Virus record (IMG/VR): IMGVR_UViG_2690316152_000015
Coordinates: 1-22,932 of that record
Length of the DNA stretch: 22,932 nucleotides
Strand: one strand, 5' to 3'
From: a virus
Taxonomy: Duplodnaviria; Heunggongvirae; Uroviricota; Caudoviricetes
The notes under the pieces are model-generated. The model worked only from the letters and a program-made list of their open reading frames with translations, searched no databases and was not told the DNA's origin. How positions within the stretch are numbered: the stretch's first letter is position 1; each line of letters opens with the position of its first letter. Shown here in pieces: positions 8,166 to 15,948 of this stretch. Position numbers and translations under genes: made by a program.

Positions 8166-8999
8166 TCAATACTCCCCGAAGTCGATCCGGTCAGTCTTAG
8201 CTACTGCGCCAATTTCGCTAGGTGTCGGTTTCTCATTAGTGGAATATACCTTGATCCATTCAGAGCGACCGTTTTCCTGAATATTTCGGACGCGTAAACG
8301 TGGTGCGCCAGAAGTATTACAGGTTAATTGCCATGCGCCATGCTCATTAGCTTGAAGGTGAATTAATGATGTGTCGGCTGAATATGGATTACCGCTAGCA
8401 GTTCCCTTGTAAGTTACGAAACGGTTTCCGGCTAAAGCATCACTATCAATCGGACCCGTGAATGGATTTACACCAGCACCCAAACCAAAATCACCCTGAC
8501 GTAAGATCCGGCCTTCGGTAGCAATACCCCTTGCCAGAATCCCGCCATCTGGTTCAAGTTTAAATTCCAGTGTTACAGCTTTGTTATCACTACCACGGGT
8601 TTTGTGTGATGTGACGTAAGCATCATAGATGACATAGTAACCAGTGTTAGCAGCACTATAGCCAGAGTTCACAACATAGAACATACGGAAGCGTAAAGGT
8701 GTTTTATCCTCTACCGCTTTCATCAACATTGCTTGATGTTCATCGTCAAGAACACGGTTTAACGTGAGTGTTGTCGGTTCCAGTCTACGATAACCAGCAA
8801 GTTTCCCCGTAGCGTCCTGATCGTACTCTTCCAGAGTTTCTATCTCTGTGGATTCGGTTAGCGTAGGGAATGCTGCGACGTTCTCAATAGAACTAAAACT
8901 AGGATCGAAAAAGTCCGGCTGGCTATCGACCATAGTAGAAACGGAGACTTCAACATGCGACCCCGTAAAAATATCTAAGTTATCATGCGTAATATTCAT
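8166..8999 (-). CDS. Tail-tube-like protein with about 120-aa C-terminal extension domain (second tube paralog)
   Basis: 277-aa ORF with AAGGGG Shine-Dalgarno; N-terminal 150 aa alignable to the 157-aa tube protein; C-terminus carries the EKPTPSEIGA motif also found twice in the fiber. Confidence 0.5.
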   Translation of the reverse strand: MNITHDNLDIFTGSHVEVSVSTMVDSQPDFFDPSFSSIENVAAFPTLTESTEIETLEEYDQDATGKLAGYRRLEPTTLTLNRVLDDEHQAMLMKAVEDKTPLRFRMFYVVNSGYSAANTGYYVIYDAYVTSHKTRGSDNKAVTLEFKLEPDGGILARGIATEGRILRQGDFGLGAGVNPFTGPIDSDALAGNRFVTYKGTASGNPYSADTSLIHLQANEHGAWQLTCNTSGAPRLRVRNIQENGRSEWIKVYSTNEKPTPSEIGAVAKTDRIDFGEY

Positions 9000-9732: not shown

Positions 9733-9763
9733 TACAAAAAAGCCCCACCGTTAGGCAGGGCTA
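9733..9763 (-). terminator. Intrinsic terminator after the capsid gene
   Basis: Minus-strand hairpin AGCCCUGCC-UAACG-GUGGGGCU followed by U6; near-identical to 3903-3933. Confidence 0.6.
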
Positions 9764-9896: not shown

Positions 9897-11909
9897 TCAT
9901 TCAGCGCCAATCTGGAGAACTTTCAGAGCTTCCGGCTGTGCTACAACGTAGTCCAAATCCAGCCATACACGAGGCACGATCGCGGACTGCGCACGGTAGG
10001 TTGAATCGTCCAGATCTAGCTCAAGACCTCCCCATTCCCCAACGATAATACCGGAGAAGTCACCCAGAACGATGTGACCAGCCGGGATAACGCCAGAAGT
10101 AACTACTTCATAACCAGCAATTTTGCCGTTTTCCATAATGAAGCCTTGAGCATCACCACGATCAGATTTCGGAGTAGATTCCAGTTCAGCAGCAGTTGCA
10201 CCACTCATAGCGAACTTGATAGCCTGAGCAGGAACGCCAGCGTCGGTCAATGCGGCAATCTCTTTCAGCAGGTCTTTATAGCTGAAAGCGGTTTTCTTAG
10301 TCACGCGACCACCGTCTACCAGTTGTTTAACCAGACCAGCCGGACCACGAGCATTTTCTTTATCAGACAGAATCAGTTGTTCCAGTTTGATGCGAACAGC
10401 TTTGTTAATGTGATCAGTGATCAGGGTAGCGATATTAGGAACAGTTTTCAGAGATTGACGGCTGATCGGGTTGCCACCAGCAAAAGTTTTCGGAGCCATT
10501 TTCACGTTTGCAAATTCAGCTTTGCTTTCCGGTGCAGCACCGTTTTCATCAACGAAGCCGAAAGCGTCAACGCTGGAAGCGGTCATTTTCGGAACAGCGA
10601 TCGGGCTATTCAGACCAGACAGAACGGTCACACCCAGACGACCCAGACACGAAGCAGGAAGCAGCATTTCGATGTAGGATTCAGTCAGCAGTTTTTCATC
10701 AGTAACAGCAGTCAGAGTAGCTTTGGTGTTACCTTCGGAAGCAGCACGCATAGCAGCAGCCGGAACGAATACAGAGCCACCACGAGCAGCACGACCACGC
10801 TGCATAGTTGCAGTAGCAGCCATTGCGGAATATTCAGCTTCATGAGCGCCCAGAGCAGCACCATCTACCAGAGAGCGAATTACGTTGTTCAGGTCAAAAG
10901 TTTTTTCCATGATGGATTCCTTATTAATTTGTTGTTCGTTATTACGTTGAGCATTGGTAATGTTATTTAGTGCCTTAGTGCGGAATGCTTCCGGCGTCAT
11001 GTCTTTAATTGCCAATGCGCGTTTTAATTCTTCGTCGTCAATATTTAGTTCGCGTGCAATTTCGCGAATTTCTAATTCGTCTTCTTCGGAACGTTCAGCC
11101 ACTTCCTCGGTTTTTTCTTCTTCAACCGGAGCAGCTTCACGTTCTTCTTTTATTTCTTCTTCCCGAACAGTTGAACTATCATCATCAACACTTTCAGGAT
11201 GTTTAGCGTCTTTTCCGTCTTCGAGATTTTCATCTTCTTTATTCTCTTCAACTTGGCGCTCTTGAGTTTCTTCAACTTCCGGTTCTTTAATTTCTTCTAC
11301 CGGAGTTTCTTCAACCGGAGCGGCTTCTTGTTCTTCTTTAATTTCTTCGATTTGTTCTTTAGTCATATCGCGTTTAGCCTCCAAATTAACTGTGATAGTA
11401 TTTAGAGAGCGATTCAGACCGACCGAATCATCAGCCGGGACCGTGACCCACGAAATTTCGTGTGGAATCCATTTAGAAACAATGAGTTGCGATTTGGCGT
11501 AGTCGATGTGATACTCTTTAATGTCATAGCCGACAGAAATTTTTTCCATCGTACCTTCAATGACTTTGTTACGAATATCATTAGCCATAGTCCCATGCTT
11601 GGAGAATTTAACCAGAGCACGACCTACGTTATCCGCATCGATTCGAGCGTTACAAACGACACCAATGTGATTATCGAAATTGTGATTGAACAGCAACGGA
11701 GCGTTATTATTCAGACGAGACAGATCAACCGCTTCCGGTGTATGTACCAGAATTTCATCTAATACCACCATTTCTTGATTTTGCTCATCCCAGAATTGGC
11801 GCTGATAAGGCTGTTCACTGGAGAAAGCAATTTCAAACTCGTATTGATCGTTATGCCCTTCGTTAATAACTCCACCGTAACCGTTAAGATCGCGGCGAAA
11901 TTTAAGCAT
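9897..11909 (-). CDS. Fused prohead protease, acidic scaffold-like linker and HK97-fold major capsid protein
   Basis: 670-aa ORF; N-terminal 180 aa resemble HK97-family prohead protease (HEISWVTVPADD); middle about 150 aa highly acidic with internal duplication (EEIKEEQEAAPVEE and EEIKEEREAAPVEEE); C-terminal 330 aa resemble HK97-family capsid; Shine-Dalgarno AAAGGTG. Confidence 0.8.
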   Translation of the reverse strand: MLKFRRDLNGYGGVINEGHNDQYEFEIAFSSEQPYQRQFWDEQNQEMVVLDEILVHTPEAVDLSRLNNNAPLLFNHNFDNHIGVVCNARIDADNVGRALVKFSKHGTMANDIRNKVIEGTMEKISVGYDIKEYHIDYAKSQLIVSKWIPHEISWVTVPADDSVGLNRSLNTITVNLEAKRDMTKEQIEEIKEEQEAAPVEETPVEEIKEPEVEETQERQVEENKEDENLEDGKDAKHPESVDDDSSTVREEEIKEEREAAPVEEEKTEEVAERSEEDELEIREIARELNIDDEELKRALAIKDMTPEAFRTKALNNITNAQRNNEQQINKESIMEKTFDLNNVIRSLVDGAALGAHEAEYSAMAATATMQRGRAARGGSVFVPAAAMRAASEGNTKATLTAVTDEKLLTESYIEMLLPASCLGRLGVTVLSGLNSPIAVPKMTASSVDAFGFVDENGAAPESKAEFANVKMAPKTFAGGNPISRQSLKTVPNIATLITDHINKAVRIKLEQLILSDKENARGPAGLVKQLVDGGRVTKKTAFSYKDLLKEIAALTDAGVPAQAIKFAMSGATAAELESTPKSDRGDAQGFIMENGKIAGYEVVTSGVIPAGHIVLGDFSGIIVGEWGGLELDLDDSTYRAQSAIVPRVWLDLDYVVAQPEALKVLQIGAE

Positions 11910-11954
11910 TTAATCACCTTTAATTAATTGGGGGCATTGCGCCCCCGTTGGTTA

Positions 11955-13466
11955 TTAGGGATCGGCTGGGGAATTTTTTTCTTCACCCTCGCCATTAACG
12001 ATAATATTTAGTGCGCTCTTTTCGGCTTGAATCTCTGAGAATACTTTTTCAGGATCATCACCACGTTCTAATATAACGGCAGTACGTGATTTAAGTCCTT
12101 TATCAATTAAAGCAATATCAGCGTTCACATCTTTAATAACATCGACGGACTCAAAACGCGGACGAATAATAGTAGTGTTCTCGATAATATGCGGGATTGC
12201 AGTAATACGAATCGGAACAATACCACGCGCGGAATAATGACGTAGATATGCTTCAAAAATTGGCAATACCACTGTTTCAATCAATTTGTTTTGTAGTGCT
12301 TTAACGCGGTTACGTTGAAGTAGTTCACCGAAACGTGCGGCTGAGTAGTTGATCTGTGAACAATCTCCTGTTAAGCCCTGTTTAAACACGCCAAGACCCA
12401 TCGAGACGCTACCCTGCATCGCATCGTTAAAGGATTTGAAATCATCGCCTGATTGAGTAGCTTGGATACTCTTGATCGTTGCCCCTTCCGGTAATTCCTG
12501 AATAGTACCAGGTGCAAAATCCTGTACTACTTCCGGCGCTTGATATTGGTCTTCATCTTCACCGGTATCAAAATCGTCACCAGAATCTTTCGGACGTTCG
12601 ATAAAGCCCATAGAGCTAGCTGCAATACGTTTCTGGACGATCGCGGTTTCGCGGAATGCGTCTTGATGTGCGATATCCTTAATCACTGGTAGGAAGTCGG
12701 TCACGCCGCGCAAACTCTCGGCACACAAGGGCTGATAGTAATGGCATACTTGCGAAGCCTCGACTCTATAATGATCACCAGTGTAGGTCTGAGTCAGTAG
12801 GTTGACTTTTCTAAACCAGTATGCTACAGGGCGCATTGTTTCTACGTCATACTCAATCCCCTGATAGATAGCACGTTCTTTGCTTACTTCACGGTTGAGC
12901 GACCAGTCGCACTTATCAGCAGACAGGATAGAAACATGTAACTCATTGTTTTCTTTGGTTAAAACGATGAAGCACTCACCACCCATAACGCGCTCACGTT
13001 CAGCCATTACCAGCAATTCACGGAAGTTAAAGCGACCGTTACGAGAGAAGCGTTTAGCATTCTGCGCCCACTTCCAGAAAGCATTCTCGATCTGCTTATT
13101 CAGTGCGCTATCAAGTTTGCCATTTGATTTAACGATTGACGGCTTCGGATCTAGGCCAGTACCTACCACCATATCGGTGATGTATTGCGTGTAGCGACTG
13201 CCTACGGAAGTGTTTAAGGCCAAAGTACGACCCTGATCATAAAGACGCATACCGTTTGATTTGAGAGCCTTATTGAAGGTTCCTGTGATAGTGTCTTGTT
13301 GAAGTGCACCATCAATGCGATCACCTACCAGTCCTAAACTACGAGTCGCCAGAGATTTCTGGAATTTTTCTACTTGCTTATCGATGAAAATTTTTGGTTG
13401 TTGCTGGCGGTGATTAGTTTTAACTGGAGTTTCTACCGCCTTATTGCGTCGAAAAAGATTAAACAT
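11955..13466 (-). CDS. Portal protein
   Basis: 503-aa ORF between terminase and capsid genes with AAGGGG Shine-Dalgarno; size and position as for lambda gpB-type portals. Confidence 0.8.
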   Translation of the reverse strand: MFNLFRRNKAVETPVKTNHRQQQPKIFIDKQVEKFQKSLATRSLGLVGDRIDGALQQDTITGTFNKALKSNGMRLYDQGRTLALNTSVGSRYTQYITDMVVGTGLDPKPSIVKSNGKLDSALNKQIENAFWKWAQNAKRFSRNGRFNFRELLVMAERERVMGGECFIVLTKENNELHVSILSADKCDWSLNREVSKERAIYQGIEYDVETMRPVAYWFRKVNLLTQTYTGDHYRVEASQVCHYYQPLCAESLRGVTDFLPVIKDIAHQDAFRETAIVQKRIAASSMGFIERPKDSGDDFDTGEDEDQYQAPEVVQDFAPGTIQELPEGATIKSIQATQSGDDFKSFNDAMQGSVSMGLGVFKQGLTGDCSQINYSAARFGELLQRNRVKALQNKLIETVVLPIFEAYLRHYSARGIVPIRITAIPHIIENTTIIRPRFESVDVIKDVNADIALIDKGLKSRTAVILERGDDPEKVFSEIQAEKSALNIIVNGEGEEKNSPADP

Positions 13467-13476
13467 GATTTACCCC

Positions 13477-13971
13477 TTATCGCGTAAGACGTAATTTGAT
13501 ATTTTTAATCGGGCTAATTCCCTGTTTACGTCGTTCGGCTTGAATTAATTTTGATAACTGACGTTCATAATCAGTCTTTAATTGCTGGAGAACAGCCAAT
13601 GACTCATAGGCGAAAGTATTCCCTTTCACTGTCATTTGAGATAATGCGGCTTCGTCCCCAGATAAACGGGCGAAAATAACTTGCTCGATGGTGGCGATAG
13701 TTTCCCGCAGATGGTCTTTTTTGCTTTGTTTGGCGAATACTGGTAAAACAGTTAATTCCTGCATTGATACCAGTTCTTCTTCCAAAGTTATTACGATGGT
13801 ATATTTACCCTCGGCAAAATCTAAGGTTTTAATCTCATGATTAGCCGGAGTATCATCAACCTGATAAATGATACCTTTACTATTTCCTACCTGAATTGTT
13901 ACACCCTCTTCATTCGCCAGCGTGATTTTTTCACCTTTACGAATTACTAAGGGAATTAGTTCTAAACTCAT
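13477..13971 (-). CDS. Hypothetical protein between large terminase and portal (possibly gpW-like head-tail joining at its C-terminus)
   Basis: 164-aa ORF with AAGGGG Shine-Dalgarno in the position lambda gpW occupies; C-terminal segment loosely follows the gpW pattern; weak. Confidence 0.35.
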   Translation of the reverse strand: MSLELIPLVIRKGEKITLANEEGVTIQVGNSKGIIYQVDDTPANHEIKTLDFAEGKYTIVITLEEELVSMQELTVLPVFAKQSKKDHLRETIATIEQVIFARLSGDEAALSQMTVKGNTFAYESLAVLQQLKTDYERQLSKLIQAERRKQGISPIKNIKLRLTR

Positions 13972-14043: not shown

Positions 14044-15948
14044 TTAGAACGATGTTACCCAGCTACGGCCTCTATTTGGACGTCTGGCGATGTTTTGACG
14101 TTGTGGTCGTGTGATTGGCTTACTTTCTTCTATTTGCTCGTCAGATTGCGTTTCAGGAGCTTTTACGGGTTCTTCTGGTTCGCGGTTCAAACTATCTTTG
14201 ATGGCTTCCAGTTTTTCCCATGACATTTTATTAAGCACATGACGATAACTAGCCACGGCATATGTAAGACAGTCCAATCCCTCGTTACGTTGCTGTCCAA
14301 CTTTTACCCAACGTGTCGTATTACCCTGCCGTTTCAACTGTTCAGATAACAATTGTTCGCAGTAGTCATCAGGAACGTCACCAATCTGGAAGACAGTATG
14401 CGGATCGCTGTCTCTCAAGTTCCGGTTAATCATTTCACGGATCATCGTCTTAAGATTGTTTACGCCCAGAATTTTAAGGGTAAAACCGCCCGTTCTTGTG
14501 TCCTTGACCGGAAGGATTGGAGCATCAACATTGCTTGCACCCTTAATGGCGCATAGGTTTTGCCACCTAGTGCAGAAGCGATAGATCACGTTTGTAGCTC
14601 GTCCGTTCGATGAGTCCACGAAAGCAGATAGCATCGGGATTCGTTGACCGGATCGGGTATAGAATTTAGCTTTCAGGAAGTTGTAAAGCTGGTCATATGC
14701 TGGTGATTCGTGGCGTTCGCAGTTCACATCATAGAATGATCGGTGATCAACTACGCATATCCCCTTACGAGAGATACCCAGCAAGGTAGATTCAAGACGG
14801 TCTTTTTGCTGGTCAACACCACTAACCAGAGCAAGTACATCATCAGGAATATTGTCTAGACTAATATCAGTTTTCAGCGTTTCCAGTTCGTCGGCTGTGC
14901 GGTCTTCGTTAAGATCATCGAAGGTTTCACCGAGGACTGTATTGTAGAACGTTGCCAGTGACATATTCGCGTAGCTATCAGCAAAGTCCACCACACACGC
15001 ACGGATAGAACTAAACGGAGACATAAGGCGGTTAGCATGAAAACCGATTACTTCCGCGTTTGGTTCGGTTGCTACCCATTCACCTTGAGCAACAGCACGT
15101 AGGCGAGCCCCTTCTGTCCAATCGGTTTCACATGACGGGCAACGGTAAACGGCTGTGTCAGGATTCGGCAGTGATTTACCATTGATTACATGCCAATCAA
15201 AGAAAACTCTACTCCATTCCATTACGTGTTTGTGTCCGCAATGCTGGCAAGGAACATAGTATTTCCTCTTATCCGAGAGTTCCCATTGTTGGTTTATCGC
15301 CCCATCACGAGCGGTTGGAGTGGAAGCAATTATGATCCTTGCGTCATCCCCGAAAGTGGTTGCGCGTTGTTCCGCTAGTTGGATCGGGTTCCCTTCGTCT
15401 GACTCATCAGCCGCATCAACTTCATCAAGAATAATCAAAGGGAGTGTTTTACCGCGAAGATGTGACGGACTATTCAACGACATGAAATACATGAATGATC
15501 CGTTACGAAGCTGAATAATCGATGAGTTGTTAACGGCATTGCGATCTGACTTGTCGGTGATCATCGCCTTTAATTCTGGGGTTGCCTCTAATACTGGCTT
15601 CACCTTACCCGCAATCCATGAGTTCAATTCTCGAACGTTTGCTTGCAAAACACCGATGTTAGTAGGGTTGCTGGCGATCCTGTGAAAGATAATACCGTTT
15701 AGCACAAGAGTTTTACCCAACTGCGCCGAGCACTTTAGAACAATTTTTCGCCTATCTTCGGTGATCGCGTCCATCATTCCACGTTGGAAGGGATGCAATT
15801 TAATTAGCGATCCGGCTTTAACACCATCGGTAGCAACTACATTAGCCTCTACCCATTCGCTAGGTTTCATGGCTTTAGGTGGGCGAATTGCCGCAGAGAT
15901 ATTTTTAAGAATCTTTTTTAATTTGGCCTTATTAGAAATCAGTTTCAT
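14044..15948 (-). CDS. terL: Terminase large subunit, GpA (lambda A)-like
   Basis: 634-aa ORF; deviant Walker A (CSAQLGKT), Walker B (LIILDEVD), zinc-finger-like CxxC pairs and C-terminal nuclease region as in lambda gpA; first gene of the minus-strand late operon. Confidence 0.9.
   Translation of the reverse strand: MKLISNKAKLKKILKNISAAIRPPKAMKPSEWVEANVVATDGVKAGSLIKLHPFQRGMMDAITEDRRKIVLKCSAQLGKTLVLNGIIFHRIASNPTNIGVLQANVRELNSWIAGKVKPVLEATPELKAMITDKSDRNAVNNSSIIQLRNGSFMYFMSLNSPSHLRGKTLPLIILDEVDAADESDEGNPIQLAEQRATTFGDDARIIIASTPTARDGAINQQWELSDKRKYYVPCQHCGHKHVMEWSRVFFDWHVINGKSLPNPDTAVYRCPSCETDWTEGARLRAVAQGEWVATEPNAEVIGFHANRLMSPFSSIRACVVDFADSYANMSLATFYNTVLGETFDDLNEDRTADELETLKTDISLDNIPDDVLALVSGVDQQKDRLESTLLGISRKGICVVDHRSFYDVNCERHESPAYDQLYNFLKAKFYTRSGQRIPMLSAFVDSSNGRATNVIYRFCTRWQNLCAIKGASNVDAPILPVKDTRTGGFTLKILGVNNLKTMIREMINRNLRDSDPHTVFQIGDVPDDYCEQLLSEQLKRQGNTTRWVKVGQQRNEGLDCLTYAVASYRHVLNKMSWEKLEAIKDSLNREPEEPVKAPETQSDEQIEESKPITRPQRQNIARRPNRGRSWVTSF

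Follow-up and report, generated by a model that had tools for sequence, protein, structure and literature searches.

How does a tailed phage assemble its head when the prohead protease, the scaffold and the capsid protein are all parts of one polypeptide? This question is raised by a 22,932-nucleotide stretch of DNA from a virus of the Caudoviricetes (IMG/VR record IMGVR_UViG_2690316152_000015, positions 1 to 22,932; the whole stretch is referred to below as the window). An earlier note on this DNA, made from its sequence alone, had placed a protease, an acidic linker and an HK97-fold capsid domain in one 670-residue open reading frame (ORF) with an internal duplication. We examined this gene, its relatives and its genomic neighborhood, and we consider it highly probable that it is an ordinary protease-scaffold-capsid fusion carried by a siphovirus-type prophage of Escherichia coli, the product of which would be processed in the way proposed below.

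A protease and a capsid protein in one reading frame

The ORF was found exactly as claimed, at 9897..11909 on the minus strand. It starts with ATG, is uninterrupted, and encodes 670 amino acids (73.7 kDa, pI 4.7) in the order protease, acidic spacer, conserved helical segment and HK97-fold capsid domain, with Pfam domains recognized at both ends. The ATG at 11909 is preceded, at a distance of 4 nt, by a Shine-Dalgarno-like AAGGTGA (11914..11920, minus strand), as read directly from the sequence. Among the ORFs located between the portal and the tail genes in the head module of the window, no separate protease or scaffold gene was found.

The N-terminal part, residues 23-167 (11409..11843, minus strand), is a prohead serine protease domain of the S78, or assemblin-like, fold. 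The Pfam profile Peptidase_S78 (PF04586) matches residues 40-162 with an E-value of 1.1e-9 and a score of 39.1 bits, the curated gathering cut-off being 21. Two residues are predicted to be catalytic: His76 (codon at 11682..11684, minus strand), which falls in an invariant column with His65 of HK97 gp4, and Ser125 (codon at 11535..11537, minus strand), which falls in an invariant column with Ser114 of the same protein. Their equivalents are retained in 157 of 157 fused relatives. His65 of HK97 gp4 was reportedly established as catalytic by Duda, Oh and Hendrix in 2013. A fold search with a model of the full-length protein returned capsid matches only, and the assemblin/prohead-protease fold became visible once the N-terminal part was modelled alone. 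A protease fold within the N-terminal 180 residues, on which the earlier proposal depended, is thus supported by the profile match as well as by the catalytic residues. The domain is an S78 protease with an intact catalytic His and Ser, and we predict that it acts on the capsid precursor.

The C-terminal part carries the capsid domain, and here profile, sequence and structure searches all agree. The hidden Markov model of Pfam family Phage_capsid (PF05065, HK97 family) matches residues 413-666 (E-value 8.5e-24, 84.9 bits, cut-off 24.2); together with the S78 match at residues 40-162 it supplies the domain boundaries that the earlier note had suggested confirming by such searches. A phmmer search matched residues 410-663 to the capsid chain of roseophage R4C (8gta_A, E-value 1.8e-24). 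When the full-length AlphaFold2 (AF2) model was compared with known structures using Foldseek, the best capsid match was again 8gta_A (E-value 2.3e-17), the HK97 structures 1ohg and 2ft1 followed at about 1e-10, and the capsid proteins of phiXacJX1, RcGTA, SaPI1 and D3 were also retrieved, all capsid matches lying between 2e-17 and 1e-10. The predicted local distance difference test (pLDDT) score of the model is 77-94 across most of residues 410-670 and 70-76 in three blocks of 10 residues. The asymmetric unit of the R4C major capsid protein holds one hexon and one penton subunit, i.e. T=7 (PMC10276861), and by homology the capsid domain encoded in the window would be expected to assemble into an icosahedral shell.

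A probable maturation site

The solved R4C capsid also offers an indication of where the chain may be cut. The deposited sequence of 8gta_A, 268 amino acids long, corresponds exactly to residues 362-629 of the 629-residue R4C gp6, a protein homologous to that of the window over its full length; residues 1-361, comprising the protease, the linker and the segment preceding the capsid domain, are missing from this mature-virion chain. R4C residue 362 aligns with residue 399 of the window protein (NTKAT|LTAVTDEKLL). The predicted mature protein would therefore comprise residues 399-670 (9900..10715, minus strand), 272 amino acids with a mass of 28.7 kDa. We infer from this alignment that the mature N-terminus lies near residue 399, the exact cleavage site being an estimate. 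The suggestion in the earlier note that a single precursor processes itself is a reasonable one in light of the R4C capsid, in which only residues 362-629 are present. PDB entry 8GTA numbers the 268-residue R4C major capsid protein from 1; the gene is located at positions 2962-4851 of the R4C genome (L003 in our set), and the N-terminal third of its product is an S78 protease.

The region between the two domains

About 230 amino acids (residues 168-398) separate the protease from the predicted mature capsid protein, and this region consists of parts that differ in character. The earlier note had described an acidic linker of about 150 residues. Its acidity stands, but the strongly acidic part is shorter, about 95 residues (181-275; 11085..11369, minus strand), with 43% aspartate plus glutamate (D+E) and a net charge of approximately -29. 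This spacer is mostly predicted to be disordered, and its length varies within the family; the AF2 model has pLDDT values below 30 at residues 196-271, the stretch containing the second copy of the repeat described below. The spacer is followed by a conserved three-helix module (residues 275-330; 10920..11087, minus strand), which on the basis of the AF2 model and its conservation is a candidate scaffold or capsid-interior-binding element. Helices are predicted at residues 275-287, 292-300 and 306-330, with pLDDT 72-82 for most of the module, dropping after residue 310 or so and below 50 from residue 321. Next comes a conserved segment immediately preceding the capsid domain (residues 337-398; 10716..10901, minus strand), upstream of the putative maturation site; its R4C equivalents are absent from 8gta_A, and a helix is predicted at residues 340-371 with pLDDT of about 40-65. 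Weak Pfam matches of the linker to DUF2316 and FumaraseC_C (E-values 0.09-0.9, far below the cut-offs) were dismissed as noise.

Conservation separates these parts clearly. In an alignment of 158 family sequences, residues from about 171 to 270 carry 0.2-0.7 bits per column, with 41-89% gaps from about residue 181 on; nowhere is the alignment less conserved or richer in gaps than in the acidic stretch that bears the repeat. Residues 271-400, in contrast, carry 1.1-1.9 bits per column with gaps of up to 30%. G378, P383 and R388 are near-invariant, each being present in 143-144 of the 158 relatives, and I281 and F309 are invariant in an alignment of seven phages. Since the spacer is unconserved and predicted to be disordered while residues 271-398 are conserved and predicted to be largely helical, a scaffold or delta-domain role is more likely to reside in residues 271-398. 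Conservation, predicted disorder and length variability together suggest that the acidic part (181-275) is a variable, free-running flexible tether.

The linker is the only part of the protein that changes in length across the family. In 157 fused relatives its length ranges from 74 to 203 amino acids, with a median of 119 and a standard deviation of 23, whereas the standard deviation is 4.5 amino acids in the protease domain and 5.4 in that of the capsid. With 169 amino acids and 34% D+E, the linker of the window protein lies close to the upper end in both length and acidity. An internal 14-mer repeat that beats all shuffles is present in 8 of 158 linkers, and these motifs are mutually unrelated; the longest linker (P0176) contains a perfect 14/14 repeat. 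Short duplications seem to be one recurrent way in which the spacer has grown over evolutionary time, and it is fair to say that in the long run linker length evolves partly by such duplications.

A 14-residue motif present twice

The internal duplication reported in the earlier note is real, but it is confined to a single 14-residue motif that occurs twice. A DNA repeat search located copy 1 at residues 188-201 (EEIKEEQEAAPVEE; 11307..11348, minus strand) and copy 2 at residues 251-264 (EEIKEEREAAPVEE; 11118..11159, minus strand), with 38 of 42 nucleotides identical. The two 42-nt copies start 189 nt apart, that is, in frame and 63 amino acids from each other. At the protein level they agree at 13 of 14 positions, whereas 1000 shuffles that kept the composition, made from the entire linker and also from the acidic 95 residues alone, never exceeded 9 of 14, and the repeat is therefore beyond chance. 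Duplication of a whole 63-residue unit was rejected: the other 49 residues of the intervals give a local score of 35, compared with 33 +/- 5.7 for shuffled sequences, and 175 of 500 shuffles reach 35. Tandem Repeats Finder detected only weak 15- and 24-nt arrays nearby.

Distribution of the fusion and comparison with known systems

The fused gene is widespread. It was found in 49 of 5426 complete E. coli genomes, with 88-95% nucleotide identity and always in the chromosome. A protein identical to that of the window (P0001) is present in NCBI and UniRef under the name "phage major capsid protein", and both of its Pfam domains are recorded there. Residues 21-665 are covered by PHROG 617 ("major head protein") over positions 24-621 of a profile of 626 positions (E-value 1e-89), and a further match is to phrog_4523, which bears the name "major head and protease protein"; in the phage homologs of both groups, as in the window protein, the catalytic His and Ser are retained. 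A tblastn search found the fused gene in 83 phage records, including Hapunavirus (VP882, phiHAP-1), Cronusvirus (R4C, RcCronus), the group of ep3, ECO1230-10, Arya and HeidiAbel_Bas97, as well as Mano and DCP80. When 1.84 billion cluster representatives (50% identity) were scanned exhaustively with HMMER, there were 6464 matches at E<=1e-3 and 443 at E<=1e-30. A profile built from the seven-phage alignment retrieved almost only the E. coli clade, and diversity was obtained with a profile from which that clade had been excluded. Fused proteins of 565-893 amino acids account for 149 of the best 150 HMMER matches, and the fusion is common to 157 of 158 diverse relatives. Both Pfam domains are present in the listed homologs, except for P0372 and P0401, with PF05065 alone, in one set of 120.

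Among cultured phages, full-length homologs with 24-45% identity and the same domain order are R4C gp6, RcCronus gp7, VP882 gp07 and the proteins of phiHAP-1, ep3, ECO1230-10, Arya, HeidiAbel_Bas97, Mano and DCP80. The genomic context is shared as well: DCP80, R4C and VP882, like the window, encode terminase, a small gene (head-tail joining where annotated), portal and the fused gene, and in the other cultured-phage homologs that we fetched the fused gene directly follows the portal. The window protein, with 169 amino acids, and DCP80 have spacers that exceed by approximately 10-55 amino acids those found in the other five phages (116-159), and the window spacer is much more acidic (34% D+E versus 13-21%).

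The closest cultured-phage homolog is that of DCP80 (L002, PQ671644.1, positions 3932-5932), with 41% identity in the full-length alignment and 45% by tblastn. The DCP80 record is 141 kb long and is classified as Straboviridae/Tevenvirinae, with a head module mostly annotated as "hypothetical protein"; this module (lambda-type terminase, small gene, portal and fused capsid) appears siphovirus- or prophage-like and not of the T4 type. The record may be chimeric or contain a co-assembled prophage.

HK97, the prototype of the fold, provides an instructive comparison. Like the window protein, HK97 gp4 and gp5 comprise an S78 protease, with His65 and Ser114 as the equivalent residues, and the same capsid fold. 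HK97 carries its scaffold function as the delta domain at the N-terminus of the capsid protein, from which the protease removes it (PMC10275583). The HK97 protease is a separate protein of 225 amino acids, which is present in fewer copies and is sent to the shell interior by its C-terminal part. In the window protein a covalent link replaces that part, which implies a 1:1 stoichiometry of protease to capsid unless an internal start exists. Herpesviruses (UL26/UL26.5) and phage lambda (C/Nu3) represent a different arrangement, in which the protease is fused to the scaffold, the capsid gene is separate and an internal start yields an excess of protease-free scaffold. Lambda C is a protease of the S49 type, whereas that of the window is S78, and no conserved internal start was found for the window family.

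The architecture itself has been published. Jacobs-Sera et al. (2020) explicitly describe "protease-scaffold-capsid fusion" genes (PMC7302621), such a fusion in one gene is also described in PMC9671004, and a fusion of the major capsid protein to a protease is described in PMC8601537. The actinobacteriophage fusions encode, as does the window gene, a protease, a scaffold-like middle and an HK97-like capsid in the same order (PMC7302621, PMC9671004); they belong to 17-kb genomes of phages of Actinobacteria, whereas the window element is a larger enterobacterial prophage, and the likeness stated here is one of architecture. The papers on XM1, D3, CBASS and Phage_Finder contain no treatment of protease-capsid fusions. 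Our search for literature on VP882 capsid processing found none, and in the literature searched we found no experimental study of how these fusions cope with one protease per capsid subunit.

A proposed assembly pathway

From these data we propose the following pathway. One full-length chain would be translated from the ATG at 11909, where both the ORF and a ribosome-binding site are observed. By analogy with the HK97 delta domain, the C-terminal HK97-fold domain would polymerize on the portal into a procapsid, with the N-terminal residues, about 398 of them, inside the shell. Residues from about 271 to 398 would serve as the scaffold or delta domain, and the acidic spacer (approximately 181-275) would act as a flexible tether giving the protease reach. 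The S78 protease (His76/Ser125), now concentrated within the shell, would cut near 398/399, as the R4C structure suggests, and probably at further sites. The fragments would leave before DNA packaging, and a mature capsid protein of about 29 kDa would stay.

Several considerations weigh against this pathway. The analysis shows which domains the protein contains, its catalytic residues, its fold, how conservation is distributed and that alternative genes are lacking. The topology of assembly, the part played by residues 271-398 as a scaffold, the cleavage and its site and the fate of the fragments are predictions. AF2 confidence for residues 337-409 is moderate to low. The start of the 8GTA chain may be the first ordered residue and not the true mature N-terminus, and neither "protease" nor "cleav" occurs in the paper on the R4C capsid (PMC10276861). 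Space within the shell would be limited: 415 subunits (T=7, as in R4C), each with an N-terminal part of 45 kDa, add up to approximately 18.7 MDa or 23,000 nm3, and this would occupy 40-70% of a cavity with an assumed radius of 20-24 nm, which is tight. Finally, this particular copy of the prophage is probably tail-defective, and its fused gene may no longer contribute to virion formation. The tape-measure ORF (891-2642, minus strand, 583 amino acids) matches a 779-residue protein of a related prophage (L001) over residues 1-541 only and then continues with unrelated sequence; an IS3-family transposase (rve, HTH_21; 1-888, plus strand) abuts its 3' end, and the distal tail genes of L001 were not found in the window.

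Alternative explanations

The earlier note took the repeat to be a functional module, variable in copy number, whose gain or loss would change the length of the scaffold and perhaps the size of the head; a related possibility is that the motif is a repeated cleavage or docking site. Both forms of this explanation appear improbable to us. In its favor, the repeat is statistically real, its two copies occupy the same alignment positions across the close family, linkers of the wider family range widely in length, and some of them, including that of P0176, have internal repeats of their own. The motif also contains I-K-E, which in an E-rich sequence weakly resembles the (L/I)-x-E cleavage motif of T4 gp21. 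However, the locus holds two copies of one motif and no array, the similarity ends at 14 amino acids, and the region is almost unconserved. In 164 distinct close relatives (655-673 amino acids long) and 49 E. coli genomes we found neither an extra copy of the motif nor a loss of the 63-residue (189-nt) interval. Indels in those 164 proteins are of the slippage type, 1-14 amino acids long and nearly all within the linker: most of copy 2 is gone in P0122 and the first half of copy 1 in P0081, and P0095 is missing eight residues that lie between the copies. In most relatives the copies have drifted apart and are less alike than in the window (EEIKEEQESAQVEE versus EEVKEEREAAPVEE, for example), and the motif was not found in DCP80 or in any more distant relative, being restricted to the E. 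coli prophage clade. This locus does not constitute a repeat array of variable copy number, and the repeat bears no sign of a functional requirement; most likely it arose neutrally, by slippage or recombination in GAA-rich DNA. That the fused ORF is itself an artefact or a decayed gene, either because a frameshift introduced in sequencing or assembly has joined two genes or because the protease half is dead, is an explanation to which we give almost no credence. The insertion sequence (IS) element in the tape-measure gene of this copy would be in keeping with decay, but the fusion is uninterrupted in identical and 88-96% identical copies from dozens of independent genomes, the same fusion is present in the cultured, viable phages R4C, VP882, ep3, Mano and RcCronus, and the catalytic His and Ser are kept in every fused relative. 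The independent copies and the kept catalytic residues effectively refute this explanation.

A further alternative concerns the number of protease copies. Translation could also begin within the fused gene, at Met334 (codon at 10908..10910, minus strand), giving a 337-residue, 35-kDa capsid precursor with a delta-like N-terminus of 65 amino acids; full-length chains would then be the minority, as in lambda C/Nu3 or UL26/UL26.5. The tight packing of 415 full-length chains leaves room for a second, shorter product of this kind and keeps the nested gene under consideration. An AAGGA is located 7 nt upstream of the Met334 ATG, as it is in L001, a copy with 95% identity; all of 120 close relatives have Met334; and DCP80 has an ATG at the nearby residue 321 with AAGGA 10 nt upstream. 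Against this, the position of Met334 is not Met in DCP80, R4C, VP882 and RcCronus, a Met no more than a few residues away is present in only about 30% of the 158 diverse relatives, and no recognizable Shine-Dalgarno sequence precedes an in-frame start there in R4C, VP882, RcCronus, ep3 and Mano. Moreover, AAGGA is frequent by chance in A/G-rich coding DNA, and in most close relatives the Met is preceded by KDSK and not KESI, so that the upstream codons are not fixed. As a feature of the whole family internal initiation was rejected, Met334 and the Shine-Dalgarno-like sequence not being conserved beyond the E. coli clade. We regard a nested gene as unlikely overall, and give a similarly low chance to its narrower form, in which Met334 with its AAGGA is a genuine internal start in the E. 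coli prophage clade alone and yields a majority of 35-kDa precursor over a minority of full-length chain. One possibility without a second product is that all of the approximately 415 subunits carry a tethered protease, and that the acidic, disordered spacer keeps some 19 MDa of protein soluble and mutually repelling until cleavage.

Genomic neighborhood of the fused gene

The fused gene is preceded, in order, by the large terminase (14044-15948), a head-tail joining protein (13477-13971) and the portal (11955-13466), and after it come two small ORFs and then the tail genes; the downstream ORFs encode small connector-sized proteins and tail proteins. The portal gene (11955..13466, minus strand), directly upstream and a presumed assembly partner, was recognized by a match to phrog_21, portal protein (E-value 4.9e-65). 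A consensus scan detected a terminator-like hairpin with a T-run at 9741..9762 (minus strand), which has a 9-bp stem with 6 GC pairs and a TTTTTG tail and is a pattern match only. It is located approximately 135 nt 3' of the capsid stop codon, inside a 190-nt gap that precedes the next ORF, and in HK97 a putative terminator is annotated at the same relative position, after gp5.

A second hairpin, which is GC-rich (11929-11947; GGGGGCG-CAAT-GCCCCC on the coding strand), is found between the portal stop codon (11955) and the start of the fused gene (11909), just upstream of the ribosome-binding site. At the equivalent position, the portal/protease junction, a putative terminator is annotated in HK97. 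The hairpin may set the ratio of portal to capsid expression.

In the tail region, two ORFs that match the major-tail-protein family phrog_158 flank a distal long tail fibre of the T-even type (75-79% identical in nucleotides to gp37 of RB49-like phages; phrog_1699) and a gp38-like adhesin (phrog_1121). Together these ORFs are located at 4595-8089, 3383-3889, 8166-8999 and 4064-4537, all on the minus strand. In L001 the slot corresponding to the tail fibre of the window is occupied by a different fibre, a "pyocin knob domain" protein. This suggests that the receptor-binding module was swapped in from a virulent myovirus lineage.

The fused gene is broken by an IS element in two E. coli genomes, NZ_OW848980.1 (H47, IS903B) and NZ_CP195866.1 (H56, IS1A), and the annotation of the latter divides it into "HK97 family phage prohead protease" and "phage major capsid protein". 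These interrupted copies illustrate the decay of this prophage family in E. coli.

Implications

The window gene is an ordinary member of a widespread fusion family, and its description in the earlier note is a correct rediscovery of a published, database-annotated arrangement. Since the architecture has been published and the protein is already in databases, the gene matters little as a discovery. Judging from sequence comparison across the family, the fused architecture is ancestral and selected. The R4C capsid (8GTA) was published without mention of the removed 361-residue protease-scaffold part, a gap that the comparison made here brings out. The comparison also provides a usable domain map, in which the protease and capsid domains keep a constant length, the spacer can vary freely from 74 to 203 amino acids, and a conserved segment of about 130 amino acids precedes the mature capsid protein. 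Were the internal start at Met334 genuine, it would represent a nested-gene answer to 1:1 stoichiometry and crowding of a kind not described for protease-capsid fusions. Culturable E. coli phages with the fused gene, such as DCP80, ep3 and HeidiAbel_Bas97, would make the question of stoichiometry easy to address.

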